A stretch of 64,000 nucleotides of DNA from Narcine bancroftii (lineage: Eukaryota): assembly GCF_036971445.1 (NCBI RefSeq), contig NC_091479.1, positions 80,228,001 through 80,292,000 of the forward strand, read 5' to 3'. The translations under genes and the position numbers were made by a program. Shown piece after piece: positions 9,440 to 47,989 of this stretch. Each line of letters starts with the position of its first letter. Within the stretch, counting starts at the first letter, position 1. The notes below the pieces were generated by a model. It searched no databases and was not told where the DNA came from. It worked only from the letters and a program-made list of their open reading frames with translations.

Positions 9440-12400
9440 TCAAGTCAAGTTTATTGTCATCTGACTGCACAAGTACAACCTGACGAAACAGCATTCTCTG
9501 GTCCTTGGTGCAAAGCACACAGATACACAACCAGACGTAATGCCCATACAGACAAACCATACAGATGCAGGAGAGTATTCATATATACAAATAAATACTG
9601 TTTTGTAAATTTGAGAGTCTCAGATTGTTAGTATGAGCAGTTCATTTGATGGTTCAGCATTATCACTGCCAGTGGGAAGAAGCTGATCCTCGGCCAGCTC
9701 TGATGCTCCTGTGTCTCTTTCTCAACAGGAGCTGCTGAAAGGTGCAGGGTGGAAGGGACAACTGCAGCAACTGTACCACATGTAATGTAACTGGCCAGGC
9801 TGCTCTCGGTCGAGCTCTTGTAGAATGATGACATAATGGTGTCTGGTAGCCTTGCCCGCTTCAGTCTTCTCAGGAAGTGCAGTCGCTGTTGCACCTTCCT
9901 GACAAGTGAGATTTGTGTCCACAATAGGTCACGAGTCAAGTGAACTTCAAGGAATTTGGTACTCTCCACTACAATTATTGATGTGTAGTGGAGGGTGGTC
10001 GTTCCTGGTCTTCCTGAGGTCCATGATTAATTATTTCCTTCACCTTGGTAACGTTGAAATTCAGGTTGTTACTCTTGCACTATATCAGGAGATTTTCCAC
10101 CTCTTCTCTGCAGTGCGACTCCTTGTTATTGCTGAAGAGGCCAATTACTGCAGCAAACAATGACACAGTTGGAACTGGATCTGACTGTGCAGTTGTGGGT
10201 CAGTAGCATGAACTGGAGTGGGCTCAGCACACAATGCTGAGGTGTGCCCGTGCTCACCGTGATGGTGCTCGATGTTTTACCACTGACCTGGAGAGACGAG
10301 TCTTTCCGATAGGAAGCCCAAAATCCAGCTGCAGAAAGGGGTTTTGAGTCCCAATGAAGACAGCTTCTCCACCATCCTCTGGGGAATGATCATTTTAAAT
10401 ACGAAACTCAAGTTGATGAATAATAGCCTCCAGGTGGCAGGATGGTGTGAAGGGGCATGATTATAGTATCATCTGTGGAATGGTTTCTTCTATATGTGAT
10501 TTGAAATGAGTCTAGCATCTTCGCTCTGGGTGGTATGCTTTGATCAGGGTCAGTCTCAAGGGGAGGCATTCACTGGGATCCCCCTGTAGTGCGCGTCGAA
10601 AGAACCAAAGACTTGTTGATCCAAACCAAGGCTTTTATTAACTAAAAGACTGAAGCATATCACAAGTAGGTCAACCAGTCCAGAATGAACTGGTCTGGCT
10701 AGGAGCAATCCTTTAAGACCTGCCAGTAGGTGTGACTACACTCTCAGCCAATCACAGTCATCCTACACTACAATCTGTACATATACACATTGGTGATAGA
10801 ATGTGTACTATCATATTCACCTCTTCTTTTAGAACCAACCCCAGGGTGGATGGAGGTTAGGGGCTGTACTGGTCAGGGGGCCTGACCATCCGGCGTGACC
10901 GCCAGGATCAGAGTCACTGGAGTTGTGTCGCCGGCAGGCCCATTGGGTGTGGCCACTGCTTCGCTCAATTCCTCAATGGCATTGTCAACAGTCTGTCCTG
11001 AGCTAGTGGGGTCCCTCTGTTCAAGCACATGACCTGGGGGAGAAGGAATAGGGGGAGGTTGGGTTAAAGACACTGCTGCGCCTGATCTGGCTTGGGCTAG
11101 GTCCCTTACCGAGACTGTCCTCCCGCCCGTCTGGGTACTCAACATAGGCATAATGCGGGTTCGCGTGGAGCAGAGTCACTCGGTCAACCAAGAGGTCGTT
11201 CTTTGAGGACTGGAGCGGGAACCGTGAGCCATGCCGGTATGGTCGTAATGGTGGCATTATCTCTTTTGACTTGCCCATTATCGCGTGGGTTATAGCTGGT
11301 CCTGCTTGAAGCAATACCACGCTCCAGAAGGTACTGCTGCAGCTCTGGGCTCATAAACGAGGACCCCTTGTCACTGTGGATGTAACTGGGGTACCCGAAG
11401 GTGGTGAAGATGCTGTGCAGGGCCTCTATAACTGAGGAGGCAGTCATGTCCGAGCAGGGCACAGCGAATGAGAAGCGGGAGTACTCGTCGATAGCTGTAA
11501 GGATGTAGGTGTTACGGTTGGTCGATGGTAGAGGCCCCTTGAAGTCTACGCTGAGACGCTCAAAGGGGTGGGTGGCTTTGATGACGTGGGTGTTCTCCAG
11601 TTGGAAGAAGTGAGGCTTGCACTCAGCGCACATCGGGTCATGGAGCGAATCTCCTCGACTGTAGGGCAGGTTGCGAGCTTTGACAAAGTGTGCGAACCTA
11701 GTGACCCCTGGATGACAGAGCTCCTCATGGAGTTTCTGCAGCCTGTCCAGTTGTATGTTGGTGCAAGTCCCCCTGGAAAGCACATCTGGCGGGTCGTTGA
11801 GTTTACCAGGCCGATACGGTATGTCATAATTAAAGGTGGAGAGCTCGATTCTCCACCTGGCAATTTTTGTCATTCTTGATCTTACCTCATTGGGTATTGC
11901 TAAACATGAAGGAGACTGTGCATTGGTCAGTCAGCAGTGTAAAGCGCCTGCCAGTGAGGTAGTGTCTCCAATGATGTATTGCTTTGACTATGGCCTGGGC
12001 ATCCTTCTCAACAGAGGAGTGTTGGCTCTCAGGACACTGGAGGGTTCTGGAGAAGAAGTCTACCAGCCGGCCGCCCTGGTTCAAAGTGGCTGCCAGTGCA
12101 AAGTCAGACACATCGCTCTCGACTTGGAATGGAATGGACTCATCGATGGCATGCAGCGTTGCAGCAGCGATGTCCGATTTGATGTGGTTGAAGGCTGCTC
12201 TGGCTTCGGTTGACAGGGGGAAGGAGGTGGTCTTGATTAGTGGCCGTGCCTTGTTGGCATAGTGTGGAACCCATTGGGCATAGAAAAAGAAAAAACCCAG
12301 GGAGCGTCTGAGTGCCTTCTGGGTGTGTGTGGAGGGAGGGGGGGGGCAAGTCCATGAGGGGACGCATGCAGTCAGGGTCTGGCATGACCACCCCCGTTCT

Positions 12401-14680
12401 CCACCACACAGCCCAGAATTGCGAGCCGTGGTCCAGAAGACATACTTTTCAAAATTATAGGTCAAGTTCAACCGAGTTGCGTCTGAAAAAATTTCTCAAG
12501 GTTGGCATCATGATCCTCCGTGTTATGGCCGCAGATGGTGATATTGTCCAGATACGGGAAAGTAGCAGTCAGCCCGTTCTTGTCCACCATCCGGTCCATT
12601 TCCCACTGGAAGACCGCAACGCCATTTGTGACCCCAAAGGTACCCTGAGGAATTGATACAGCCGCCCATTCGCCTCGAAGGCTGTGAAAGGTTGGTCTTC
12701 TCGGCAGATCGGGAGCTGATGATAGGCCGAACGTAAGTCAATGGTGGAAAATGTGGTGATCTGATTCACCACATCCGTGATCCGAGGAAGGGGCTCCGCA
12801 TCCAGGAGAGTGAAGCAGTTGATTGTCTGGCTGTAGTCAACCACCATCCGCGGCTTCTCCCCGTTTTTAACAACCACCACCTGGGCCCTCCATGGACTTG
12901 AGCTAGGTTCAATAATGCCCTCATCTAGCAGTCTGCGAACCTCGCTTGTGATAAATTTCCTGTGTTCATAACTATATTGCCGGCTTTTAGTGGCCACAGG
13001 CTTCCAGCCAGGCTGCCACTGGCAGGAGGTTTCCGGGGTGGAGTGGTTACAGACAGAGAGTGGAGCGTGAGGCCCCCCAAAGTGCAGGGAAACGATTTGA
13101 AACTGGCACTGAAAATCCAGTCCCAGCAGTGCATGGGTGCACAATTGGGGAAGGACTAATAGTTTGCCGCCGGCCATTTTGGAGCGACAGACTACAGCAA
13201 AGTGGCCGTTTTTAAAGCACTTTTGGCACCTGGCTTTTCTCACCGGGCACTGGGACCTGCTGTGCTTGTTCCTCTTGAAGAAATAACATTTTGGGGTTGC
13301 ATTGGGCAGCGTAGTGGCAGTAGTAGGGTAGAGGGAGGGGATCCTACTTACATCAGAGTGTGGGGTCCAGCCCCGAGAGTACATGTCCATACTTAAAAAC
13401 CATAGTCTCCATCATCTTGGCGATCCAGATCACGTCCTCTAGGTTTTCTCCCCCGTGCTCTAGCAGGCGCTGCCTCACCTCATTCGATCGAACCCCAGCC
13501 ACATAGGCATCCCAAATCAGATTGTCTGTGGTCTCTGCAGCAGTTCTGTCTGTGCAGGCACAGTCCCTACCCATTGCCCTTAGTGCCTGAATATAAGCTC
13601 TACAGGACTCACCGGGCTGTTGCCTCCTTGTAGCAAGTTTGTACCGAGCGTAGACCCTGTTCACTGGTTGCTCGTAGAGCCCTTTCAGCACCTTCATGGC
13701 TGCGGCGTAAGTGGTCGCATCCTGGTCACTCTGGTAGACTCTCGGGGGACACCATAGTCATCAATATTAGTAGTTGATGGTTGTCCTCTATCACGGCAGG
13801 ATCAGAGAGCTGTAGGTATGTTTCAAAGCATCTCACCCAGTGCTTAAAGTCATTCAAGGCTGTAGCTGTCTGTGGGTCGATGTCGAGGCGTTCCAGCTGT
13901 AGCATACGCTCCATCCCTTCAAAATTTTTTAGTTAATAAAATTATAGTGCGTGTTGAAAGAACCAAAGATTTGTTGATCCAAAGCAAGGTTTTTATTAAC
14001 TAAAAGACTGGAGCATATCACAAGTAGGTCGACCAGTCCAGAATGACCTGGTCTGGCTCGGAGCAATCCTTTAAGATCTGCCAGCAGGTGTGGCTACACT
14101 CTCAGCCAATCACAGATATCCTACACTACCATCTGTACATATGTAAATATACATATTGGTGATAGAATCTGTACTATCACACCTCTCCCCCACCATCCAC
14201 CCATGAAGTGTTGTGGTCCCCATACATTCGCGGCCATTGCTCACTGTAAGACCCGCCCCCATCCGCTTGACTAGCATGCGTCAAGCATCATTAGCGTCTA
14301 GCATAATACTCGCTAGTGACTCTGGACACAATAAAAGCAGTGCATTCAACTGCTACGTCGGAGGAGGTTTACATCCATTCAGCAAGTAGGCCACCAGCAC
14401 CCCACCCTAGCTGTTAGGCCACCAGCCCAACTGAGTGTTGGACTATGCCCCCACAACCCCAGTTACCCTAATTCCCCCTCATCACTCATTCTGGTGCCGA
14501 CCCTGGCTTTGATTCTTTCCATCACCAGATGCTCAAAGCATAATGATGAGATCAGTGCCACAGGTTGGTAGTCATTGAGGCCTGTTATTGTTGTCCTCTT
14601 GAACACTGGGATAATGGTGGGTGTCTTGAGTCCTATGGGAATGTTGGACTGCTGCAGTGAGGTGTTGAAGAGTTATCTAT
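9440..14680 (-). mobile_element. Rex1/Babar-like LINE remnant (9440-10584 plus 14182-14680), split by the Gypsy insertion
   Basis: ORF 9628..9969 KFLEVHLTRDLLW..VRKVQQRLHFLRRLKRARL; CAAGTCAAGT-type tail at ~9441; related + strand copy at 22096-23165. Confidence 0.7.
10585..14181 (-). mobile_element. Ty3/Gypsy LTR retrotransposon with both LTRs, internally deleted and frameshifted (gag-PR remnant-RT-RH-IN)
   Basis: LTRs at 13943-14181 (5') and 10585-10815 (3'), ~92% identical by eye; PPT at 10816-10831; flanks CCCC/CCTC. Gag with CCHC knuckle (CQKCFKNGHFAVVC), RT (WRAQVVVV..DYSQTIN..DLRSAYHQ), RNase H (ESDVS..AATL), integrase (HPG..CAEC, DFKGPLP, DEYSRF, HSDKG). Confidence 0.95.
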
Positions 14681-15860: not shown

Positions 15861-18800
15861 CTACGCTGATGATACTCAGCTTTGTCTCCCCCTGAAGCCC
15901 AACAATCAAGCAAAGATAACCAGCCTCAATGACTGTCTGGAGGCTTCGCTTGCTCTTCGAGTTGTTGTTTCTAGAGCAGACGCCAGAAGATATCCGCCTC
16001 ATGTTGGCTGACGAGGACTTTGATAACCCTCAAACAGTGGCCATTCTGTGATGCATGAAACAGAAAAGCGCAAGCCCCACAGAAATTAGTGCTGTGTCAC
16101 ACCCAAAGGCTCAATCTCCACGAGTACCAGCAATGAAGGCACACGTTCCCCTGGACAAGTATGACTCTGTGACAATGGTTATGGCAGCTGGTCACTTTAA
16201 TAGCCTACTCAACGTCTTGGATGAACTCTCCCAATGCAAATTTCTTGTCGGCATGGGTGCGGTGATTAGTGTCCTTTCTTCTTTAGGCTTTGACACCCAT
16301 ACCAGGAGTGCAGGTTCAGTGTTCACTGGGGTGAATAACAGTTCAAGTCATATGTGTGGCACATGGACAATAAGTTCACATGGAAGTTCATTCTTGCTGC
16401 TGTGTCCCGGCTGTTGTTGGGTGCTGACTTTCTCAGAGCCAATCCACTGCTGGTGGATGTAAGAGGGCGCCAGTTGGTGAACACCACAATGTTCCAGACT
16501 TTCTGCCTTTGAAAACTCAAATTACCTAGACACCAAACTTCTTGTGGAGTTTCCAGACATTGTCACTCCTCATTTCTCCACTGCCATACCCAATCATGGG
16601 ATTGCACACCACATCCTCACTGAAAGACCTTCTCTACACGCCCAAACCTGATGCCTGCCACCTGACAAGTTACGGCCTGCATAAAATGGAGGAACTTGGA
16701 ATCATACGTTGTTCTGATAGCCCATGGGCTTCCCCATTACATATGGTGCCCAAAGCCACAGGAGGTTGAAAACCTTGCGGGGATTACAGGCATCACAACA
16801 ACGCTACCACTGCAGACCGCTATCCTGTGCCCCAAATAGAGAACTTTACAGCTAATCTTCATGGGGACAGGATATTTTCTAAGATTGACTTGGTGTGTGG
16901 ATACCACCAAATACCTGTAAACCCAGAGGATGTGTCCAAGATTGCTATTATAACACCGTTCGGCCTCTTTGAATTTTTGAGAATGTCCTTTGGCTCAAAA
17001 ATACTGCAGAAACATTCCAGCGGCTGATGAACACTGTGGGGCGTGGCCTGGGCTTCCTTTTCATATACTTGGATGACATACTTGTTGCCAGCCACTCCCA
17101 CAAAGAGCACCTACAGCATTTGTGTTTACTCTGCCGCTGGCTACAGGAGTTTGGGCTAACTATGAACCCTGGCAAGTGCAAATTTGGGCAGTTATTGGGA
17201 CATCAGATCAGTAGCTGGGGTGTTGATCCATTGCCTAGTAAGGTGGAAGCCATCCTCAAATTTGAGAGGCCTGATACCATCAAAGGACTCCAGGAATTTG
17301 TGGGGATGGGCAACTTCTATGTCACTTTCTGCAGCTCATGTTATGAAACCCCTCTTCGACCCAGCAATACCAAAAAACTCGAGTGGACAAAGGAAACGAC
17401 AGTAGCATTCCAGCAGACTAAAAACAACATTGCTGGTCCATCCACAAATGGATGCACCAACTTGACGATAGACACATCCGATGTGCCAGTAGGCGGGGTC
17501 TTGGAACAGAACAGCAATGGACACTGAAGCCTGTAGCATTTTTCAGTAGGCACCTCCAACCTCCAGAATAGAAATACAGCACATTCAATAGGGAACTGCT
17601 GGCGCTGAACCTAGTGGTCAGACACTTCCACTATTTTTTGGATGGCAGGGACTTCATGGTTTTTACTGACCTCAAACCACTAAGATTCACCTTCACAAAG
17701 GCATCAGATCCCTGGTCAGCCTGCCAGCAACGCCACCTCTCTTATGTTTCCAAGTTTTCAACCAGGATTAAACACATCTCCGGTAAGAGTAATGTGGTGG
17801 CTGATGCCTTGTCTCGCTCCTCCGTTTAAGCAGTACATGCCCTCTCTCCAAGTGCAGATTACATGGCGCCCGCCAGAGCTCAATACCAAGATGATGAATT
17901 CCCTGCAACTCAAGGATGTAGCCTTTGGGCCGCAAGGTACCACTCTCCTGAGCAAAGTTTCCACAGGTCAGCCTCATCCTATCACCCCTGCTGTGTGGAG
18001 ACATTGCATTTTTGATGCCATTCATGGACTGTCCCACCCTTAAATTCGAGCAACAGACTACCTGAAAACCAACGTTTATATGGTTTAGACACAAAAAGCA
18101 GGTCACATACTGGGCAAAGACGTGCACGGACTGCCAATCTGCAAAAGTGCAAAGGCGCCACTTCAGTCTTTCCAGCCACTGCAGTACAGATTCGATCACA
18201 TGCATATCAACATTGTCAGCCCACTTATGGTGTCACAAGTGACTAAGTACTTGTTAATGGTCATCAACAGATTCACTAGGTGGCCGGAGGTGGTTCCTAT
18301 GATAGACATTGACCGACTCATGCACGAGAGCTTTAATTTCTACTTGGATATCTCGGTTTGGGCTATCCGCACATGTCACCTCCAACAGAGGCCCACAGTT
18401 TACCTCTGCACTTTGGGATGTTTTGTTGTGACTGCTGGGAAAGCAGCTCCACTACATGACAGCCTACTACCCGTTGTCAAATGGCCTGGTAGAGCGGTTT
18501 CATAGGCACATGAAGGATGCACTGATGGCCTGCCTCCAGGGACCTGATTGGGCAGACAAGCTGCCCTGGATCCCCCTTGGAATAAGAACAGCACCAAAGT
18601 ACCTCGGGAGTTCGTGCCTGCACCATGCGGACAGGAGGTGCCATCAACTGAAGACTTAGACTGCGGAGCGGCTTGTAAAATTGGTCCTAGTTCCCACATC
18701 CAGGCATGGAACAACGACACTCTTAATCCCAAAAGAACTCTGGGACTGTGAGTTTGTGTTAGTGTGTAGAGTTGTACACGGGCCACCCTTACAGAGTGCT

Positions 18801-23000: not shown

Positions 23001-26000
23001 AACAATATTTACTTATTTATTTATATAAATGAAATACTTGTCCTGCATATGTATTGTTTGTCTGTATGTGTGTTATGTGTGAGTGCATGTTTTGCACTGA
23101 GGACCAAAGGATACTGTTGCATTGGGTTGTACTTGTGCTATCAGATGATAATAAACTTGAGTTGATTTAAACAGTTCCTTGTATTGAGCTCTGACAGATT
23201 GAATAATCCCTCCCCAAAAAGGTGCTGAATTCATGTCCAACACTTGTCTCTTTAAAGATTTCCATCTGTACTTTTATTATAATTTATCCCTGGTGATTTA
23301 GAAATGATTGTACTCTATTTCAGAAGATCGCTGGGTGAATGAATATGATGACAAACTGCTTTATACCTGTCCAAAATCTGAAACTATCAGTACAATTTCA
23401 AGGTGAGTTACGAAAGGTCTCCGGACAGTAATCTGATGACAGATTTAAATTTTATGATGATCGTATTGCTTTGAATGCATGTGAACTTCTTCTTTCAACT
23501 ACCTCATGATATCATCTGTGGGGAATGGTCACATCAACTTCACCCACTTCCACACTGTTTTAGAGTATAAAAATTACATCCTTTGGAATAATGCTCATGG
23601 AATAGTAATAATTCAGTGCTCCTCCTGCACATTTCAGATGATGTTTTCTGGAGTAAATGGAGTAGACTTTCTTCATCCGAGTTGATCACTTTAATTGAAT
23701 AAACATTTTTGCGAATTTACAAATCTGCACCCAAGTTCCAGGCATCCTAAAAACTGCAGTTCTCTTAAAATGCCTCGTACTTTCTGTTCCAGCCAGCATC
23801 ACAGTTATTATGAGGACCGTCTGTGGGATTTCCAGTGTCAGGAGACATTCAACCAGCAGCCATCTTGTGTATGGAGTAACTACGTGAACAGCTTTGATGA
23901 AGAGTTCACGTTCACCTGCCCATTTGACTCCATTATTAGTGGTGTAGAATCTTACCACCATGACAAGCACGAGGATAGAAGGTACTTTGGAAAATATTGG
24001 GTTTATTCTCATCAACTTTTGCCTCTGTTATTTTAAAACTATATTTCATTGGTAAATGTGAACAAAAACTGACAAGGTTAATAAATTCTATTTGATATTA
24101 GAGCCATTTTCTAACCTTCACCTCTGCTTGTTGCCTGAATGTTTCTGCCAACAATACGTGGGCTTGGCGTTCCTTCTTGTTCTCTTACTGTGCACCTCTG
24201 TGTGTCTCCCCGCAGAACATTTCTCTTTGAGGGCAATCAGCGCACAACAGTGGTTAGAACATTAATGAATCCAAAAGCATACCACATGGTACACACAGTT
24301 CTTAAAGGAACACTCACAGTAATCTTTTAACTACTCCAGTGAATACTTCAGTTAATAAACACTGAAAGTATTAAGAAATCCAACTGCAAAAGATCAATAG
24401 GCATCCTTGATCTTAACAGAAGAAAGTAAAGGTTCTGATCATCAGCTTCCAATCTCTTTGATGAAAGGGATGGACTGAAAATCTGCTAACATGACACCAA
24501 TGTTTAAAAGGAGAGAAACCCTGGACTAAGTATTGATGAGATAGTTAGGTTAGGACTAGTGCTGGGCAAGTTGATGGAAACATTCTGAGGGGTAATAAAA
24601 CTTTTTTTTTCCGACATTTTCTGAAATATTCAATTTCAGACTGTGGACATTGCCCATCAATTGCTTGTGTGTTTTGAGGAGGTAACAGGGAGGGTAGATG
24701 TAGTCACATGGATTTTAGCAATTGTTTGACACCCATAGTAGACTAATCAGAAATCTGAAAATGCACAGGATTACAGAGGAGCTGAGGAAGACTAATCCAT
24801 TGTTTCAGGGATCTAGGACACAGTATGAAAGAATTGTGAATGTGAATAGGATATAGTACATTTTCTTTCTTAAAGCATAACCTCTTGGTATTGAATAAGT
24901 GAGACAATTGAGGCCTACTTGATCCCTTGTGAAATGTTGTGCACGTCCGCAGATAACTGAAAAAACCAAGAACATCTTTTAGCGCATGTGTTTCCTGCAG
25001 ATTTCTCTTTGCACTTCCTGTATATTGCTGCACCAAGAAACTGTAATAAGAAAGGATCTGAAAAGTGAAGATGTCCAATGAAACAAAGTTGACCAAAGCA
25101 TTAAATGCCGATAAACTTGTGTTTTTGCAATAAACCACAGTAACTGAAATGACGAAGGGACACAGTTTTCGATCGGAGCACAGGAAAATTAAAGGTTACT
25201 GTTTGGGGTGCTGGCTTATGCCTTGTAACTGTCAAAGTGGGAGGGTGCAAGATAATCCAATCACTTTAGAGGCCTTGTGTTATGTCCTCGGTTGTGCCAT
25301 CGGAGGTCTTAATAAACACTCAGAGAAGCTTGTAAGTTGACAGCGCAAACTTTTACTTACATCAGTAGTAGTAAGGCTGCTAGTCATGTATAAATACACT
25401 GTTGCACTGAGGATGCTCACCACTCAAGTACGATGCGGCTCTTACAGTCTTGTGGTGTTCATGCTCCAGCATAAAATAGTCCCAAGTTTTCTCTGTATAT
25501 GATACCTTGTATCTATGTCATTCACGATAAACAATATCATCCACCTTGAGGGTGAGGACAATGATTCCTGCTCAAAGTGAAACAGGATGAGATTACCACT
25601 GTTAAACTTGCATAGGTTTGGATTCATACATCATCTTAGCCCAGATTTGACCATTCTAAGCAAAAAAAAGTGTTTCACTTGGTAAGATGACATAAGGAGA
25701 TAGATATTTTGTAAATCACTTTAATTGATCAGGCTTGGAAATTCTAGAAGTTACAGAAATCAGAAGTCAAGCCAATCTATTTATCACAACTGTTCTTTTT
25801 ACCAAGGATTATAGATTAACCCTCATCTAGGCCATGGACAAAATTCTTTGGTGACATAACAGGATTCCTTCTGGTAAATAGTGTGCATTTTCTCAGTCAA
25901 AAGTAGAACAGAGAATGCCGATGGAATAGAAGGAAAACCTCTGTGATTCCCATATATTAGTGTCTACACATTGCACCTCGTTTCACTAAGAACCCACAAG

Positions 26001-26810
26001 AGGACAGACAGAACACTTTCATTTCTTGCTTAGTGCTACAGAGACAGAGGTTCAGAGTCGTGACACCTTGCTCTTGGTACTCATGTCACTTTATTTTCTC
26101 CCCCCCTCCCCCCAACACATACTTTACCACATGAATACAATTAAAAATTCTTTTACGTGGCTAATCTTCTTTATCCTCGTTATTTTTTCTTAACACATTT
26201 AGGGTCCTTATGTGTTCCCTTTTGTGTCTTAAAAGATTGTTTCATTCATTTGTTTTATCTTTCTCAGATGGAAATTTTTATGCTGCCGTGTTAACAATAC
26301 TTGCAACAAACTCTGTTCCTGGACAGACTATCTCAACCTTTTTGACGATTACTTCAGCTGGCAAGTTCCTGAATCCAATTACATTGTGGGTGTTTCCAGC
26401 TACCATGATAATTATCGCGAGTAAGTAAATTGCAGTTGATAACATTTTTACTTTGCATTTGATTTTAGGCATATTATGCTGTATTCAAATAATATGAGAG
26501 TACATCTGAATTCGGCCAAATTGTCAGGATGAAAAAGACATTTGGAAAACCTGTATTGAGGTACCAATGGAGGTCTTTTAGTATAATCTATGCGACAGAG
26601 GTCTTGCTAGAAATATAAATGTCCGTAGCAAGTAAATCAAGTTTTTATATTATTGTCCATAGATTTTCGTCTGGATTTTAAACAGTAGTTATATATCATC
26701 TCCAAATATTTTCAAGAAAATTGTTTTATTATATTTTAATTTGCTGCATTTTCCCCACTCTCAGGGACCGTCGATGGAAGTACCAATATTGTGAGCAAGA
26801 AGCATGTTGA
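19958..26810 (+). CDS. Gene A: hemagglutinin/amebocyte aggregation factor-like (dermatopontin family) secreted protein, 183 aa; join(19958..20015,20612..20638,23324..23402,23793..23981,26268..26420,26765..26810)
   Basis: Hand-spliced at GT-AG sites with consistent phases (1,1,2,2,2), 552 nt open: MKALSLLLLVIAGIHGNPSVQKPDDLRPEDRWVNEYDDKLLYTCPKSETISTISSQHHSYYEDRLWDFQCQETFNQQPSCVWSNYVNSFDEEFTFTCPFDSIISGVESYHHDKHEDRRWKFLCCRVNNTCNKLCSWTDYLNLFDDYFSWQVPESNYIVGVSSYHDNYREDRRWKYQYCEQEAC*. It has a signal peptide, three S-x-H-x4-EDR-x-W-x-F/Y-x-C dermatopontin-type repeats and 10 Cys. Every exon except the microexon is mirrored in gene B. Confidence 0.92.
20612..20638 (+). CDS. Gene A 27-nt symmetric (phase 1-1) microexon, VQKPDDLRP
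   Basis: Strong acceptor TTCTTTTTTTACAG and perfect donor G|GTAAGT; in frame with no stop. No paralogous support because gene B lacks this region. Confidence 0.7.
20912..21138 (-). mobile_element. tRNA-derived V-SINE-like element
   Basis: Reverse strand GGGCAGCACGGTTGGC (A box) ... GGTTCGAATCCC (B box) ... TTGTATGTTTTCCCCATGACTGCGTGGGTT core; further copies at 31715-31975 and 55730-55920. Confidence 0.75.
22096..23165 (+). mobile_element. Rex1/Babar-like LINE, 5'-truncated, in gene A intron 2
   Basis: RT C-terminal remnants (KFAD, EVENLVKWCENNNLSLNVDKMKEMIMNFRR); 3' tail AATAAACTTGAGTTGA; empty site in gene B at ~42125. Confidence 0.85.
23324..23402 (+). CDS. Gene A exon 3 (EDRWVNEYDDKLLYTCPKSETISTIS)
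   Basis: TACTCTATTTCAG acceptor, AG|GTGAGT donor; same length (79 nt) as 42272-42350. Confidence 0.9.
23793..23981 (+). CDS. Gene A exon 4 (dermatopontin repeats 1-2)
   Basis: Lies inside ORF 23695..24036; TTTCTGTTCCAG acceptor, AG|GTACTT donor; 189 nt as in gene B. Confidence 0.92.
26268..26420 (+). CDS. Gene A exon 5 (WKFLCCRVNN...SYHDNYR)
   Basis: TTTTATCTTTCTCAG acceptor, GA|GTAAGT donor; 153 nt as in gene B. Confidence 0.92.
26765..26810 (+). CDS. Gene A last coding exon (EDRRWKYQYCEQEAC*)
   Basis: TTTTCCCCACTCTCAG acceptor; TGA at 26808-26810; completes the third EDRRW repeat. Confidence 0.9.
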
Positions 26811-26903
26811 TTGATTTTGTTTAAGAGAAATGTTCACTCGGGATCAGATGACCTTTCAATTAATATACAGTGTACTTTGAAAAATTCATAAACTATCAAA
26901 GAA

Positions 26904-26909
26904 AATAAA
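26904..26909 (+). terminator. Gene A polyadenylation signal
   Basis: AATAAA about 95 nt after the stop; position conserved in gene B (46951). Confidence 0.6.
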
Positions 26910-27282
26910 ATGTATACCGCAAAATATTTTCTAAGTTATTTTAATTTGTGAGCAAGTTACGCTGGTCAAAATAAGATGGATTGGCAAGTAGTTTCATGTT
27001 TACGGATAGTATCGTAATTGTCTGTTCAAGTACAGTAAAGGAAAAATATATAATTAAAAATCACTCAAAGGGTGATCACGTCTGAAATCTACCCAAAGAA
27101 ACTAGCTGTTCTTTTCTCTCAAGTGAGAATGATAATTTACCTCAACCAATAGTTTATCAGATTTATAACCATAAATCTGTCAATGGTTGTCATATAAAGT
27201 CCAGTTTTATGATCTTTTCTAACCCATTTCTGTGAGATATAGACCTCTCAAAAGATTTAGTTATTGAGTAAGGTAATCTGCT

Positions 27283-35875: not shown

Positions 35876-38800
35876 GTACAACAAATGCTTCTGGAATTTC
35901 ACTAACCCAACACACTTCAGTGTTGAGCACTTCAGAGGGAATAACCATCAGCATCTAGACAATGCCGAGGGTGTAGCATGGCTAACATCAGGTTAACAGA
36001 ACTTTAAATAGAAGGGCGATACTTTTTATCCTATTGTCTTGGCCATTAACCAATTAAGGTGGAATTACAGTTTAATTTGGAATTTTTGACTGGTTTGCAA
36101 GCTGGTTATTCACTGGAATGAACCTCACAGATTGAGTTTTCGCACGAGCGAAGGAAACCTTAATACTGTAGAGAGAAAAAGTAATTGAGTATATTTTTTC
36201 ATAAATTTGAGGAAAATGAAATGAAACCACATGAATTGTCCTTGGTTTGTCAACAAAACAACTGTGATTTAGTCCTCTATGCAGGTAAGGTTTGCAACTG
36301 TGTTTAAGTATTTTTTGGGCTTGAAAATGATGTTTGTGGTGGGGGAGGTGGGGGAACAAGTCATGTGATGCTCTACGGTTAGGATGTGGAAGTTATCCCT
36401 CCTGGGAAAACTGCTAAAAAAAGTTGAGTTATGCTTTAAGTGATTAAAAACTGTTTAAATTATGTTTAAACATCTACACAACACCAGTTCTCCATGAAAA
36501 GAAAAACCTGCTGCTGCCTTATCTGGAGCCCATCATGATGGGAAGACGAGAAAAGTAAAGAGAAGCAGGGAGCTAGCACTCAGGGTGGTCTGAGGGCTCC
36601 TCTTTCGTCGCTGCTCTCCCACAGTGACAGAGAGATGGTGTTGAAGAAGAGGAAACCAGAAGTGATGCACCGCGCATCCATGAACAATGGAGGCCTTCAG
36701 CAGACTCGGGGTCACAGACATTGGGCAGTGAAGAGAATGAAGATCCAGAAGGAGGAGGAGAAGAAGAAGAGGTAAAGAAAATAAAAACAACTTGAACTGT
36801 GACAATTAGACTTAAAACCAAGTCTTAGGACATGTCTAATAATGAACTGTGGGTAAATGCAATGTGAAGTACTTGAGGTTGCTAATAAAATGAAGAAAAA
36901 ATTAACCAAGTTAGAAGGTTCAATGAAAAGAATGCAAGAAGACATGCAGCAAGTAGAGGATTGAATAACTACAGTAGAAGATACGACTACTGCTTTAACT
37001 ATGGAGAATAAGGAATTGAAACAAGAAGTGGATATATTGGAAAATTTAGTAAGAGAAACAATATTAAGATTGTGGGTCACAAAGAAGATGTAGAAAAGCA
37101 AGATATGATTGGGTTTCTCCTGCAATGGCTTCCTGAAATGCTGGGTGCTGAACATTTTGATCAACCAAGAGATTGAAAGAGTACACAGGGCTCTCAGACC
37201 CAAACTGTCTCCAACTCAAAAACCACAATCTATATGAATTAAATTTCTCTGGTACCAAGATAAAGAGAAGATTCTGTCTTTGGTAGCAGCAAAGGTGAGA
37301 TCGACTGGAAGACCCACTTGAGTATGAAGGTATTAAAGTAGTATTTAACCATGATATGTGCAGATTTATTAAAAAGAAGAGAATTCACTCCAGTTAAGAA
37401 GATTTTATGGGAGAAAGGATATGTTTGTTCTGGATCATCCAGCGACTTTGAAGATCTTCATAATGGGTGAAGGAAACAAGTTCTTTTTGAGCTATGCGAA
37501 GGCTGAGCAGTTTGTACAAAATCTTCCAATTTTTCAGAGGGAGTGAAGAGTGAAGATTTGTGAATGCTCTAACTTTGATGGACTAAACCAGTGGTTCTCA
37601 ACCTTTTTCTTTCAACTCATGTACCACTTTAAGTAATCCCTATGCCATTGGTGGTCTGTGATTAGTAAGGGATTGCTTAAGGTGGTATGTGAGTGGGAAG
37701 GGAAGGTTGAGAATCACTGCTCTAGACACAATTATTACTGAAATATTTTGCTTGAGAAAAATTGTCATTGGCCAATTTCCTTTGGAGTTATGAAACCGTG
37801 CACATAACGAAGTCAATTAGATATGATTAAAACAGTGGTTTTCAAACCTTTTCTTTCCAACCACATAGCACCTTAAGCAATCCCTTATTAATCATAGTGC
37901 ACCTATGGCATAGGGAATACTAAAGGGTTATGTGAGTGGAAAGAAAAAGGTTGAGAACCACTACCCTACCGATGCACCTCATGCCTCTGGATGCCGCAGA
38001 TCGCCACCCACCACCAGAGAGCACCATCGGTCAACATTCACATCTCACAATGCTTGCAGAGGATGCCGCTGGCTGCATCTCTGCCGTTAGGGAATGACGA
38101 CTCGGACCCCGAGATGGTCCTAGCAGCTACCACCCTGACCAGGGATATCCATCACAGTCAAAATCAATAGGTAGGTAACAAAGTGCCTAATCGACAGTGG
38201 CGGCACAGAGAGCTTTATTCACCCAATCATGGCCACTCCCTAAAACTCAAAATCCACCCCACCACCTTCTCTATCGCCTTCGCCACCTCGGACCGAACTA
38301 TTAATATCCTCGGGCACTGCTCTGCCGATCTGACGTTGGGGTTGGGGGGAGAGACATAAACCGTGTTCAGGCTCCTGATCATGCCCAAACTCTGCGCCCC
38401 AGTCCTCCTGGGTTTAGACTTTCAATGCCACCTGGAGAGTGTCACCCTCACCTTCAGGGGGTTCCTACTCCCACTCACACTTCACAGTGTGCCGTCCAAC
38501 CAACCCCGGCCAACCTGCGGCCTCTCCAATCTGCACATTGCCCCTCCCGTCCTCTTCTCACACCTCACGTCAGACTGCAAGCCAATAGCTGCCAGAAGTA
38601 GGCGCTATTGTGCCGTGGACAGAGATTTCATCAGGGCAGAGGTGCAGCGGCTTCTGGCGGAAGGTGTCATAGAGCCCAGCAACAATGCATGGAGAGCTCA
38701 AGTCTTGGTGATCATGGATTGCACCCAGATGGAAGCCTACCTCTTACCGAGGATAGCCAACATGGTCAATGAGATAGCCCACTACCGGGTCTTCTCCACT

Positions 38801-41800
38801 ATTGACCTGAAGTCGGCCTATCACCAACACCCCATCCACCCACAGGACAAGCCCTACACTGCCTTCGAGGCAGACGGATGCCTCTACCAGTTCCGTTGAG
38901 TTCCATTTGGGGTCACTAACAGGGTCTCTATCTTCCAGAGGGAGATGGATCACATGGTAGACCGACATAAATTAAAGGCAACCTTCCCGTACCTGGATAA
39001 TGTCATCATCTGCGGCCACGACCAGCAGGACCACGATGCCAAGCTGGAGAGATTTCTCCGGATGGGCGAGGAGCTGAACCTCACGTACAATAAAGAGAAG
39101 TGCGTGTTCAGCACCACCCACCTCGCCATCCTTGGGTACATCGTGGAACATGCTGTCTTCGGCCCGGATCCAGAATGGATGCGCCCATTAATGGAGCTAC
39201 CCCTCCCCCACACACTCAAGGCCCTCTGCAGGTGCCTTGGCTTTTTCTCATACTACTCCCAGTGGGTTCCCTGTTTTTTGGAAAGGTCTGCCCACTGGCC
39301 CAGGCCACCACCTTTCCCCTCCCACCTGAGGTGCAGGCAGCCTTCACGCGCAAATGGCAGGATATCACAGACACCACGATTCATGTCGGGACGAGGACTC
39401 CTCCTTCCAGATGGAGAGCGATGCCTCCGATGTAGCCCTCATGCTACCCTTAACCAGAGGGGTGCCCTGTCGCCTACTTCTCCAGGACCCTCCACAGTTC
39501 CGAGGTAGGGCACTCCGCCATTGAAAAGGCGATCGTGGAAGCAGTCAGCCACTGGCGCCACTACCTGGCTAGCAGGAGATTCACCCTCCTCACCAACCAG
39601 CATGCAGTGGCATTCATGTTTAACACCACACAAAAAAGGCAAGATCAAGAATGATAAGATCCTGCGCTGGAGAGTCAAGCTAACAATGTAGATCCAGTAC
39701 CGACCAGGGTTTAACAACTCCCCCGACGCCCTCTCCCGTACCTGCACATTGCTCCACGATGACCAGCTGCAGGCCCTGCTCGAGTCCCTCTGCCACCCAG
39801 GCGTCACTCACTTTTATTACTTCATCAAGTCCCGACACCTCCTGTACACCGTCCAGGACATCAGGGCCATGACTGAGGCGTGCCAGGTCTGCGCGGAATG
39901 CAAGCCCCGTTTCTTCTGCCCAACCCAGGCCCACGTTGTAAAGGCCACCCGGTCCTTTGAACGCCTCAGCATAGACTTCAAGGGTAAACTTGTACTTCTC
40001 ACTTTGTTCGTTTTAAATTGGTCACAGTGTTTGAGCTACCGAAAGAAAACAGTGACACACACTGAGAGCACTTCAGTTTATACAAATCTTTATTACTAAA
40101 TCTAAAGATGATTTCAAACTACAATATGCAAGCCCTTCCCAATTATACTTATCAACGCCTGGACTGGTCCCAACTGCCGAAGCGAGGCAACGACTGCACA
40201 CTTGTAGTAGGTTGTCGGGGCGCCGGTAGCAGCTTCTCCACCTCCCCCGACCGGGACATTGGTTGGACTCTAGAGGTTCTTCTTGCTGAGAGATGTTGCC
40301 ACCCATCAGGGAGCCTGAAACTTCAGCAGTGGGACCATGGCTTATATTACCCAAAAATTGTTTATTCATAGCCCATCATCCTGGGGGAGTCCTCGTCCCG
40401 ACATGAATCGTGGTGTCTGTGATATCCTGCCTGTTGCGCGTGAAGGCTGCCTGCACCTCAGGTGGGAGGGAAAAGGTGGTGGCCTGGGCCAGTGGGCAGA
40501 CCTTTCCAAAAAACGGGGAACCCACTGGGAGTAGTATGAGAAGAAGCCAAGGCACCTGCAGAGGTTTACTTATCTTCAAGGTCTCCTGACAGTCTGAGAC
40601 CAGCAAAAGACAACTGCTTCTCTGGGTCTCATGGTGTAAATTAGATTATGTCAGCTTCATACATTATTCTCAAAGCAAGTTACTGATACTTAAACTTGTA
40701 TAAGCAAAAGCATGGTCTAAATCGTCCATTACACCCCTGCCTTCCACATTCCAGGAATGTCTATTTCCTGGCAGTCATAGACTAGTTCCGTTTTCCCTTC
40801 GCCATTCTGTGCCCAGACACCCCATCAGGGCGCTGACGCAGATCTTCACCATGTTTGGCTGCTCCGCGTTCATTCACAGAGACTGGGGGAATCCAGCTTC
40901 ATGAGCTTCAACTGCAAGGGGCATTCCAACTAGTCACATGACTAGTTACAACCCAAGGGGTAATGGAGAGGTACAGCGCGAAAATGGGGAAATCTGGAAG
41001 GTAGTCCTCCTGGCCCTGAAGTCCAAGGGCTGGTCCATAGAGTATGGCAGGATGCCCTCCCTGAGGTGCTTCATGCCATCAGGTCGCTCCTGTGCACAGC
41101 TACCACGAGACCCCCCACGAACACCTGTTTTAGTTCCCTAGGAAATCAGCGATTTGTATCTCACTCCCAGCATGACTCATGTCCCTGGGACCACAAGACC
41201 AACCCACTGGTCGAGCAGGTGTTCCTCCACGCCAACCACAATTACGCCTACGTTAGGTACCGCAGCGGCAGGGAGGACACTGTCTCAACCAGGGACCTGG
41301 CACCAGTGGGAGCACCCACCACCGCACCACAGCCTCCATCACTTCAGGACCACGCCAACACGATGTGGGATACCCAGGACCAAGTTGGCCTGCTGTGCCT
41401 TCCCCACCCTGGGCACATTCAAACCATGGGGGGCGACCACAGCCCACCCCCACTCATCCAACGCCTCACACATACTCCAACTCTGGCTGCCCTGGCCACC
41501 CCACTGTGCTGTACCATGCCAGCCGCTCCAGCCCCCGCCCCAGCACCCCGACTAGCTCCCTCTTACCCTCGCCGGCCCTTGACCAGGGGATAATCCTGTG
41601 ATGGTCTCAGAGACTCCGACGGCGGCCAGACTATCTAAATTTGTAGATAAGGTACATATGTTTGGAGCTTGTGGAACATTGGAGGTAACCTCCCCCCATC
41701 CCAGACAATTTAAAGAAGGGGATGAATGTGGTGATACACCACTGGCCTACTTCAGAGGGTGAACTGTGTACCTGCAGGAAGATCACCGGAGGACAGACCA

Positions 41801-44800
41801 CACCTGGCCGGCTGTCAATCAGCTGACTTGAATGGACCAAGCTCCATCCAGTCAGCTGCCAATCACCCTTCGGGATATAAGCTAGATCCGGCCCTTCGAG
41901 GCCAGTCTCAGTGCTTGCAACAGCATTCTCACAGCCAGCTCTGTGGAAGTTTATGTTGAATAAAACCTGTAGAACATTCTTTAAGCTTTGTGTGTGTTGC
42001 TTCTATTCGATAGCGCACCACAGACCCTGAACCAGTCTCAATTCATGATCTGCACCAAAAGATTTAAATTTCCTTTCCTTCTCACAGATGCTGCTTAAGT
42101 GTGTTCCTTTTAATAAGACTATCTAGTTGAGTCTGAATCAGATCCTTTGTATTGAGCTTTGACATATTGACTATTTCCTCACCGATAAGCAGTGTCTTGA
42201 AAGACTGTTCGATCTGTACTTTTATCATAATTTATACCTGGCAAATTAGAAATGATTGTACTCTATTTCAGGAAATCACTGGGTGAATGAGTATGATGAA
42301 AAACTGCTTTATACCTGTCCCTCGTTTGAATCTATTGTTTCAATTTCAAGGTGAGTTACAAAAAGCTCTTGCACGGTGATCTAGTGGAAGCTTTAAATTC
42401 TACCATGATTGTATTACTTTTAATGCATGTGAATTTCATTCTTCAGTTACCTCGTGATATTATCTGTGGGGTAATCGTCATATCCTCCTCACCCATTTCT
42501 ACTCAAATAACATCGTTTGGGCTTTGGAATAATGCACATTGTTTCAGTACTCCTTCTGCACATTTCAGATGATGTTTTTTGGAGTAAATAGGGGGGGGGG
42601 AACTTTCTCCATCTGAGTAAATTGATTTAAATGAATAAGTATTTTTGTGTATTTACAGTCCTGCACCTAAGTTCCAAATGACCTAAAAATTGCAGTTCTA
42701 ATAAAATGCCTCATACTTTCTGTTCCAGTCGGCATAACAATTACCACGAGGACCGTCAATGGGATTTCCAATGTCAGAGATCATTCGAAGAGCTGCCAAC
42801 TTGTATGTGGACCAATTATGCAAATGACTTTGATAAAGAGTTCACGTTCACCTGCCCATTTGACTCCGTTATTAGTGGTGTAGAATCTTACCACCATAAC
42901 TATTATGAGGATAGAAGGTACTTTGGAAAATATTGGATTTATTCTCATCAATTTTTGCCTCTGTTATTTTAAAACTATATTTCATTGGTAAATGTGAACA
43001 AAAACTGACAAGGTTAATAAATTCTATTTGATATTAGAGCCATTTTCTAACCTTCACCTCTGCTTGTTGCCTGAATGTTTCTGCCAACAATACGTGGGCT
43101 TGGCGTTCCTTCTTGTTCTCTTACTGTGCACCTCTGTGTGTCTCCCCGCAGAACATTTCTCTTTGAGGGCAATCAGCGCACAACAGTGGTTAGAACATTA
43201 ATGAATCCAAAAGCATACCACATGGTACACACAGTTCTTAAAGGAACACTCACAGTAATCTTTTAACTACTCCAGTGAATACTTCAGTTAATAAACACTG
43301 AAAGTATGAAGAAATCCAACAACTGCAAAAGATCAATAGGCATCCTTGATCTTAACAGAAGAAAGTAAAGGTTCTGATCATCAGCTTCCAATCTCTTTGA
43401 TGAAAGGCATGGACTGAAAATCAGCTAACATGACACCAATGTTTAAAAGGAGAGAAACCCTGGACTAAGTATTGATGAGATAGTTAGGTTAGGACTAGTG
43501 CTGGGCAAGTTGTTGGAAACATTCTGAGGGGTAATAAAACTAATTTTTTTCCGACATTTTCTGAAATATTCAATTTCAGACTGTGGACATTGCCCATCAA
43601 TTGCTTGTGTGTATTGAGGAGGTAACAGGGAGGGTAGATGTAGTCACATGGATTTTAGCAATTGTTTGACACCCATAGTAGACTAATCAGAAATCTGAAA
43701 ATGCACAGGATTACAGAGGAGCTGAGGAAGACTAATCCATTGTTTCAGGGATCTAGGACACAGTATGAAAGAATTGTGAATGTGAATAGGATATAGTACA
43801 TTTTCTTTCTTAAAGCATAACCTCTTGGTATTGAATAAGTGAGACAATTGAGGCCTACTTGATCCCTTGTGAAATGTTGTGCACGTCCGCAGATAACTGA
43901 AAAAACCAAGAACATCTTTTAGCGCATGTGTTTCCTGCAGATTTCTCTTTGCACTTCCTGTATATTGCTGCACCAAGAAACTGTAATAAGAAAGGATCTG
44001 AAAAGTGAAGATGTCCAATGAAACAAAGTTGACCAAAGCATTAAATGCCGATAAACTTGTGTTTTTGCAATAAACCACAGTAACTGAAATGACGAAGGGA
44101 CACAGTTTTCGATCTGAGCACAGGAAAATTAAAGGTTACTGTTTGGGGTGCTGGCTTATGCCTTGTAACTGTCAAAGTGGGAGGGTGCAAGATAATCCAA
44201 TTACTTTAGAGGCCTTGTGTTATGTTCTCGGTTGTACCATCGGAGGTCTTAATAAACTCTCAGAGAAGCTTGTAAGTTGACAGTGCAAACTTTTACTTAC
44301 ATCAGTAGTAGTAAGGCTGCTAGTCATGTATAAATACACTGTCGCACTGAGGATGCTCACCACTCAAGTGCGATGCGGCTCTTACAGTCTTGTGGTGTTC
44401 ATGCTCCAGCATAAAATAGTCCCAAGTTTTCTCTGTATATGATACCTTGTATCTATGTCATTCACGATAAACAATATCATCCACCTTGAGGGTGAGGACA
44501 ATGATTCCTGCTCAAAGTGAAACAGGATGAGATTACCACTGTTAAACTTGCATAGGTTTGGATTCATACATCATCTTAGCCCAGATTTGACCATTCTAAG
44601 CTAAAAAAAAGTGTTTCACTTGGTAAGATGACATAATGAGATAGATATTTTGTAAATCACTTTAATTGATCAGGCTTGGAAATTCTAGAAGTTACAGAAA
44701 TCAGAAGTCAAGCCAATCTATTTATCACAACTGTTCTGTTTACCAAAGATTATAGATTAACCCTCATCTAGGCCATGGACAAAATTCTTTGGTGACATAA

Positions 44801-46863: not shown

Positions 46864-46950
46864 TAATTTCATTTAAGAGATACATTCACTCAGGATCAGA
46901 TGACCTTCCAACCAATATACAGTGTACTTTGAAAATTTCATAAACTATTA

Positions 46951-46956
46951 AATAAA
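46951..46956 (+). terminator. Gene B polyadenylation signal
   Basis: AATAAA about 90 nt after the stop, in a 3' UTR alignable to that of gene A. Confidence 0.6.
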
Positions 46957-47989
46957 TTAAAATTTTAGACTGCAGAAATATTTTCTCAATTATTTTCATT
47001 GGGCAAGCAAGTTATAACAGTCAAAATAAGATGGATTGGCAAGTAGTTCCATGTTTACAGATAGTATTAGATTTGTCTTCTCGAGTACAGCAAAGGCAAA
47101 ATATATAATTAAAAATCACTCAAAGGGTGAACACATCTGAAGTCTACACAAAGAAATATTCAGTTGAATCCATGTGTGCTATTTTGGTTTCCCACAACAA
47201 CTAGCCTGTTCTTTTCTCTCAAGTGAGAATGACAACTTACCTCAACTAATAGTTCTTCAAATCTACAGCCCTAACTCTATCAGTGATTGTCATATAAAGT
47301 CCAGTTGTATGATCTTTGCCAACACATTGTTTAATTCACCCATTTTTATGTGAGATATAGATTTAATTATTGGGTAAGACTATCAGCTACTAAAGCTTCC
47401 ATCAATAGATTATGCTGGATAAGTCCATGAGACTATAAGATTTAGGAGCAGAATTAGGCCATTCAGCTCATCGAACTTCTTCTCCATTCAAATCTTGACT
47501 GAAGAGCATGTCCTCTGCCTTATCTCCATAACCCTAATCAAGAACATCAACCTCTGCTTTAACTATATCCATATGTGTCAATGAAATCCACAGCTTCACA
47601 ACCCTCTGACTGAAGAAACTTCTCTTGTGAAAGTAAGGTGTCTTATTGATTAAATTGGTGTTGATTAATACACTAAATACATCAACACTTTAATTAACCA
47701 AAATATTAATACATAAATACAACTTGGTTAATGCTTATGCTGGGACATTTGCAAATAGCTTGAAATTCCGTAGGCCTGATCAAGAACAGCGGTGACTCTG
47801 GAATGCGGCTTGTCCTAGTAACAGCAATCTGACTTGATACATTACTGACAATTTTGTTTTAATCTATCGTGTGATATACAAGAATTAGTGGAATCAAAAC
47901 TTTAAATACCTGATAGAACACACTTCAAAATTTTTGTATTCAATCTATCTATTCCTAAATTTGAGTATGATTTCGAATTAACTGCAATA

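Follow-up and report, generated by a model that had tools for sequence, protein, structure and literature searches.

In a Ty3/Gypsy retrotransposon of the ray Narcine bancroftii, the primer-binding position pairs with an arm of the element's own LTR and not with a tRNA. The pairing begins one nucleotide past the LTR end, its two sides covary between families, and poly(A) is added about 15 nt past the arm. It is probable that the element primes reverse transcription by fold-back of its RNA and a cut after the arm. The first-pass annotation of this DNA had also favoured tRNA-independent fold-back, a reading that is supported at the sequence level by the covariation, by a prediction borne out in five of five cases and by the absence of a TGG, with priming and cleavage as its putative steps. 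The element lies in a window of 64,000 nt, the whole stretch of DNA that was analysed, with the following features.

13943..14181, minus strand: 5' LTR, 239 bp; its terminal CA has decayed to TA in the window copy
14181-14045 (U3), 14044-13976 (R) and 13975-13943 (U5), minus strand: parts of the 5' LTR, with the limits of R transferred from sister-family retrocopies
14069..14074, minus strand: TATA-like TTAAAG, 30 nt 5' of the initiator A
14040..14046, minus strand: initiator TCATTCT, with the putative transcription start at A 14044; the homologous A is the start of the family-3 retrocopy L223
13991..14005, minus strand: LTR arm, the putative 3' end of the self-primer; contains the poly(A) signal AATAAA (13997-13992), with poly(A) junctions about 15 nt downstream
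13942..13990, minus strand: 49-nt loop, made up of the last 15 nt of R, U5 and a 1-nt spacer (13942)
Between 13991 and 13990, minus strand: putative cut; (G/A)CC follows the arm in 22/24 families
13927..13941, minus strand: primer-binding position, a 15-nt complement of the LTR arm without TGG
10860..13914 (lower end approximate), minus strand: broken gag-pol, with gag, zinc knuckle, RT, RNase H and integrase core
10816..10830, minus strand: polypurine tract, in the same place in intact copies
10585..10815, minus strand: 3' LTR, 231 bp; its initial TG has decayed to TA, and it carries the same arm (10647-10633) with no downstream partner
41727..42022, plus strand: 3' LTR belonging to a second family (family 2) within the same clade, with its arm at about 41950-41964 and its pol at about 38246-41302

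The window copy has the two LTRs and the polypurine tract of a Ty3/Gypsy element, and the domain order protease, RT, RNase H, integrase is found in an intact copy and in the window copy. Its gag-pol is interrupted by frameshifts and stops, with the protease region mostly gone, and its target duplication matches at three of five bases. Alignment of the two LTRs gives 212 identical columns, 19 different columns and an 8-nt gap, and the divergence of about 8% first reported was thus reproduced on recomputation. Elsewhere in the window, the pol of the second element contains a 182-nt inverted duplication of 97% identity (39223-39404 and 40383-40564), a multi-kb repeat is present in two copies some 19-20 kb apart (23260-27228 and 42208-47328, parts of which are 98-100% identical), and a distant RT-RNase H remnant lies at 16677-17823 on the plus strand (26-37% to the clade of the window copy).

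On the minus strand, 13941-13927 matches the reverse complement of 14005-13991 exactly, with a loop of 49 nt between the two. Rechecking of the coordinates upheld the exact 15-nt complement, the 1-nt spacer, the loop length and the recurrence of the 15-mer in the 3' LTR, all of which had been claimed for this site, and the TTAAA/TCATTCT pair said to lie upstream is likewise there (TTAAAG from 14074, A of TCATTCT at 14044). Among perfect inverted repeats of the 64-kb window whose loop does not exceed 100 nt, none is longer than this 15-bp stem, and the predicted fold of a leader beginning at 14044 includes it. That the stem is unchanged despite the divergence of the LTRs had been put forward in its favour; unchanged it is, but this is a weak argument alone, given a chance of about 0.3 for 15 nt by our own arithmetic. 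Across copies of family 1, to which the window copy belongs, arm and site differ from the commonest letter of the column in 1.8% of cases against 2.6-4.5% elsewhere, a low departure that an AT-rich, CpG-free stretch could also produce. The real support comes from covariation between families.

The predicted fold also shows a second helix that would lengthen the stem and cover the gag start codon (14014-14005 with 13922-13908, minus strand). A palindrome surrounds the initiator in the window copy (14058-14035, minus strand) and in family-3 LTRs, with TCATT in its loop and with families 1 and 3 differing in step; as its 5' arm precedes the putative start, it could form only in DNA or at the 3' end of the RNA.

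For family 1, 30 loci were fetched (40 scored, from 4185 candidates), a set that is biased because the query contained the site. The pairing is 15/15 in 19 of these copies and 13-14/15 in the other 11, and TGG occurs in none. Family 2 was searched with nothing but the LTR at 41727-42022, and five of 30 loci run on into gag. The first-pass annotation had predicted that relatives of this LTR would carry the complement of its arm just after their 5' LTR, and the predicted complement stands after one spacer base in all five upstream LTRs, one of which has a single arm change. Family 3 provides a third letter pair, in young intact copies with the same stem, and further ray families were also found. 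Outside the rays, 90 fetched loci gave 36 gag starts, three of them too close to a contig end, and of the 33 scored, many of which derive from few data sets, 27 have a perfect stem of 11-19 bp with different letters that was matched by 0/100 shuffles each. Five of the remaining six keep the same frame by eye: L119 and L122 form 11 pairs with a single G-U, the stem of L144 is shorter at 10 bp, and one or two mismatches occur in L142 and L147; L148 is without LTR-like context.

Twenty-four family representatives were picked for a stem of at least 9 bp, which makes the mean of their cognate pairing circular. Across these representatives, arm and site change together, in agreement with the covariation that had been claimed: the arms fall into 22 different sequences, a single position shows as many as four pair types, and only 14/552 cross-family pairings reach 12/13. 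Position 10 is G-C in 22/24 families, and positions 5-9 are G-C or C-G in 2-14 families. In every family a single nucleotide separates the LTR end from the start of the stem, the loop measures 36-68 nt in all 24, and the first pair is A-U in 24/24, as the 3' end of such a primer would require. The TGG of a tRNA site, also reported missing from the window copy, is found in no family examined.

As controls, 20 other Gypsy loci of the same genome were picked from 150 listed for the RNase H family. One control family, with about 28% Pol identity, has CA, one base (T) and TGG in six loci, without an LTR complement, and its site pairs over 14 nt with the 3' end of host tRNA-Ser(GCT). A comparison with host tRNA 3' ends, which the first-pass annotation had suggested, left the sites of families 1-3 unmatched: among 24 distinct tRNA genes covering 13 anticodons, they pair over 1 nt with any 3' end and over at most 7 nt internally. 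The 10 PF24626 loci fetched of 150 listed belonged only to other clades, with no chromovirus among them. A further Gypsy family (L177-L181, L189, L229-L231) has LTRs of about 700 bp and integrase upstream of RT, an order which we take to be Gmr1-like.

The ends of the RNA were mapped from genomic retrocopies, which is new here, with three pattern searches for A runs after the arm. The A run begins 15 nt past the arm in 9 of the 18 loci measured (range 13-24), including a family whose LTR has no natural A there. Clear long target duplications are present only in L246 (12 nt), L268 (16 nt) and L223 (17 nt). L246 is 5'-truncated in integrase and is thus a copy of genomic RNA. L223 consists of R only: after an extra G it begins with the initiator A (in TCATTCC) and continues through the arm and a further 15 bases to poly(A). 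Copying across the cap leaves an extra 5' G as its mark. From these ends it follows that the arm is inside R and that the AATAAA within it is a working poly(A) signal in the host genome. Counted from the first base of TTAAAG, the start A of L223 (family 3) is 32 nt downstream, and the arm follows 38 nt later; in the window copy the corresponding distances are 30 and 39 nt. A TATA-like word stands 69-75 nt before the arm in 7/8 ray families, and none at about 30 nt. A putative start site 38-39 nt before the arm is supported by the one retrocopy and by the TATA spacing, and it is on these two lines that the start rests, given that a second targeted search for cap-G retrocopies gave two matches, both LTRs with an internal deletion. 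By a rough estimate, a 5'-truncated copy could end at the initiator A by chance in about 2% of cases. The earlier placement of the arm about 40 nt into R is backed by the same observations. Among non-ray families, only 1/16 (L104) shows a TATA-like word some 30 nt 5' of the arm, and in most no fixed position holds one; the putative primer length of about 54 nt is therefore proposed for rays.

Several candidate retrocopies were rejected. L241 proved to be an ordinary LTR, and neither L265 nor L267 is an LTR. For L257 the better reading is an insertion that stops at an internal CA and has a 5-bp duplication, which may also hold for L242; L221 and L238 are one duplicated event. L221/L238, L222, L242, L249 and L266 begin at or beside the first TG of the LTR and stop in an A run close to the poly(A) site; they have neither U5 nor a clear duplication, and are possibly aberrant integration products.

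Given that the primer must end at the stem end, 1 nt from the LTR end, in every family, we infer fold-back and a cut. The 5' end of the genomic RNA would fold back so that the LTR arm pairs with the primer-binding position, and the RNA would be cut just past the arm at TAAA(A)/(G/A)CC, presumably by the element's own RNase H. The resulting primer would be capped, about 54 nt long, with 13-16 paired bases, and would end in A. Minus-strand strong-stop DNA would be 49 nt, and first strand transfer would proceed via only about 15 nt of R, an overlap that is short and counts against the fold-back model. As a side benefit, the 5' poly(A) signal would be hidden in families with the signal in the arm, and only the 5' signal, given that the stem partner is present at the 5' end alone. 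AATAAA or ATTAAA is found in 16/24 arms, ending 0-1 nt before the stem end, and neither hexamer in 8/24. Masking of the signal had been offered as an additional or alternative role of the stem; it is plausible as a second job in the 16 families, but the eight arms without a hexamer exclude it as the conserved core. At the putative cut, 12/24 families have a small hairpin that opens there, against 3.1 expected from shuffles; hairpins at other offsets number 0-0.8 per family, so that the one at the cut site is not clearly commoner, and it may serve as a lead.

The problem of the short overlap would disappear if self-priming took place in trans. In that case capped R-only RNAs, produced by early polyadenylation in 5' or solo LTRs, or else a second packaged RNA through its 3' end, would anneal by way of the arm and be cut or trimmed to the duplex. 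The template R would then stay whole and provide a strand-transfer overlap of 69 nt. L223 is itself a retrocopy of an R-only poly(A) RNA, and LTRs of these families run to thousands (4185 and 3740 first-look candidates for two ray families). However, with the arm only 36-68 nt from the site in 24/24 families, fold-back in cis should outcompete a second molecule, and priming in trans is considered rather unlikely. A linkage test for the strand-transfer point in 35 family-3 copies had a single informative R site; the mapped ends yield exact predictions that separate cis from trans, namely a 54-nt primer, a 49-nt strong-stop DNA and a 15-nt overlap. It is also conceivable that transcription starts from the first base of the arm, giving a Tf1-like 5'-terminal primer of just 13-16 nt, as an initiator-like CCAGTCT directly before the arm in families 1 and 4 might suggest. 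This is improbable in view of the TATA-like word 69-75 nt before the arm in 7/8 ray families, with none at about 30 nt, and of L223, which begins 38 nt before the arm, but it may apply to some invertebrate members, given the non-ray L104 with its TATA-like word 30 nt before the arm.

The presence of a hexamer in 16/24 arms, the functional state of the signal and the restriction of the partner to the 5' end are what would be expected if the stem only masked the 5' poly(A) signal, or a nearby AUG, and a tRNA fragment, another small RNA or a protein served as primer. Such a role has no need of a stem exactly 1 nt past the LTR end in every family, 8/24 arms lack the hexamer, one family has a separate AATAAA in its loop, and no alternative primer site was seen near the LTR end in the families examined, which makes masking as the sole function quite improbable. 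In favour of chance complementarity or of a decayed tRNA site are the AT-rich composition of the arms and the age and broken state of the window copy, but the same stem is present in young family-3 copies with identical LTRs and intact ORFs, the G-C pairs vary in step between families, and shuffles never equalled the stem length in 27 loci. With the family-2 prediction and the covariation, these observations refute chance complementarity and leave that explanation with next to no likelihood. Fold-back in cis followed by a cut is retained as the probable route to the primer.

Judged by its sequence, the window copy is a decayed member of a chromodomain-less animal Ty3/Gypsy clade. An intact member of the family has a single ORF of 1451 codons that encodes, in Gypsy order, zinc knuckle, protease, RT, RNase H and integrase. 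The lack of a chromodomain, remarked on from the broken copy, holds for this intact member, in whose 1451-aa protein no chromo or SH3_Tf2-1 family was detected at E <=1. Young copies have LTRs of 240 bp that are 98-100% identical and 5-bp target duplications, and the clade is very abundant and recently active in the host genome of 3.3 Gb. In the family-3 Gag of L063, residues ~325-430 form a tandem Ala/Thr-rich repeat of varying copy number, with ORFs of 1336-1549 codons. Identity in the Pol region is 100% to a Narcine bancroftii protein, 74-78% to those of other rays and a shark, and 57-65% to cnidarian, whipworm and many marine proteins; the named shark, ray, coral and whipworm hosts are joined to the clade by Pol only. 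In an RT tree of 48 rows, which omits 7/46 loci (segment absent or too short) and the Tf1, sushi and Cigr-1 references, the 41 clade rows form one group (support 99/97) on a long stem, apart from two other Gypsy groups of the same genome. The RT catalytic motif is YxDN, not YxDD, in 85/107 motifs parsed from 121 proteins (P0002-P0121). YxDN also occurs in young intact copies (L063:571-4923), and YLDD is kept in several deeper branches and in whipworm elements. Ten loci (L161-L170) are clade elements inside contigs filed as bacterial MAGs, for which host contamination is most likely. No relative was found among the viral contigs searched, an Rfam search gave chance-level matches only, and Atlas match names were generic only.

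For the identity of the clade, we take Cigr-1 to be a lead. With a single ORF (about 1200 codons) and LTRs close to 245 bp, the Cigr-1 clade (Ciona) resembles the elements described here, which may belong to it. Motif searches of literature supplements for a Cigr-1-type reference gave no match in the files searched. The Cigr-1 clade is present in molluscs and annelids, and priming is not mentioned for it in the portions available of the two papers (PMC6238403, PMC8556966). The Saci2/lennie clade, described in the available text as having a 4-bp duplication and a tRNA-Leu site (PMC4558846, PMC12471100), was rejected as a home for these elements, which have 5-bp duplications and no TGG.

Self-priming has been proven only in Tf1 of fission yeast and is predicted for its relatives and for a single lineage of plant copia elements. 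If a third lineage, widespread in animals, self-primes with another geometry, tRNA independence arose more than once and priming can be tied to 3'-end processing. Such elements would presumably escape control by 3' tRNA fragments, and annotation that demands a tRNA site misses them. It is tentatively suggested, as a possibility that falls short of being probable, that a large animal Gypsy clade (of rays, sharks, corals, jellyfish and whipworms, by Pol) gained tRNA-free priming apart from Tf1/sushi and made the poly(A) signal the 3' end of its primer, such that one stem hides the 5' signal and, once cut, gives a capped primer of about 54 nt, possibly in trans from prematurely polyadenylated R-only RNAs, with an RT that is mostly YxDN. 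Repbase reportedly contains notes on self-primed Gypsy families. The literature searched, which included the available portions of PMC7472051, PMC4558846, PMC6238403, PMC8556966, PMC12440569, PMC13524379, PMC3670739 and PMC12471100, with Repbase Reports and most subscription journals outside its scope, gave no account of self-priming for an animal Gypsy clade other than chromoviruses.

The poly(A) hairpin of HIV-1 hides the 5' AAUAAA in a stem that lies within the repeat, and a tRNA primes. Both stems would hide the 5' signal, but in the elements described here the partner is the primer site and is present at the 5' end only. In fungal GalEa copia elements, which have no tRNA site, a hairpin at a 'conserved hairpin site' is proposed as a substitute in the text available; both of its 9-bp arms are in the internal domain, whereas here one arm is in the LTR (PMC6934838). 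The TAR lineage of plant Ty1/copia (Houba, Osr-1) is predicted to self-prime, with an LTR complement of at least 10 bp at the primer position; it belongs to another superfamily and kingdom, and the accessible part of its account makes no link to the poly(A) signal (PMC6317226).

Self-priming is tied to Tf1/Tf2 of Schizosaccharomyces pombe, Tj1 of S. japonicus, and the Tf1/sushi and Tcn1 chromoviruses in the available text of several papers (PMC4600332, PMC5341516, PMC7175516, PMC6317226, PMC3601003, PMC6934838), and in Tf1 RNase H cuts between bases 11 and 12 (PMC7175516, in the part available). Like the Tf1 group, the clade is without a tRNA site, and its primer position is complementary over at least 10 bp to an LTR segment in R, kept by compensatory change. 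Tf1 takes the first ~11 nt of its RNA as primer, whereas the RNA of the ray families would start 38-39 nt before the arm, as one retrocopy and the spacing suggest. Unlike the Tf1 group, the clade has an arm of 13-19 bp that usually lies over the poly(A) signal, 36-68 nt from the site, and no chromodomain; its Pol finds Ty3 as a distant match, shares about 28% identity with the remaining Gypsy clades sampled from the host genome, and has a mostly YxDN RT motif. In summary, the clade would work like Tf1 but lacks two of the features by which Tf1 is defined, the chromodomain and the 5'-terminal 11-nt primer.
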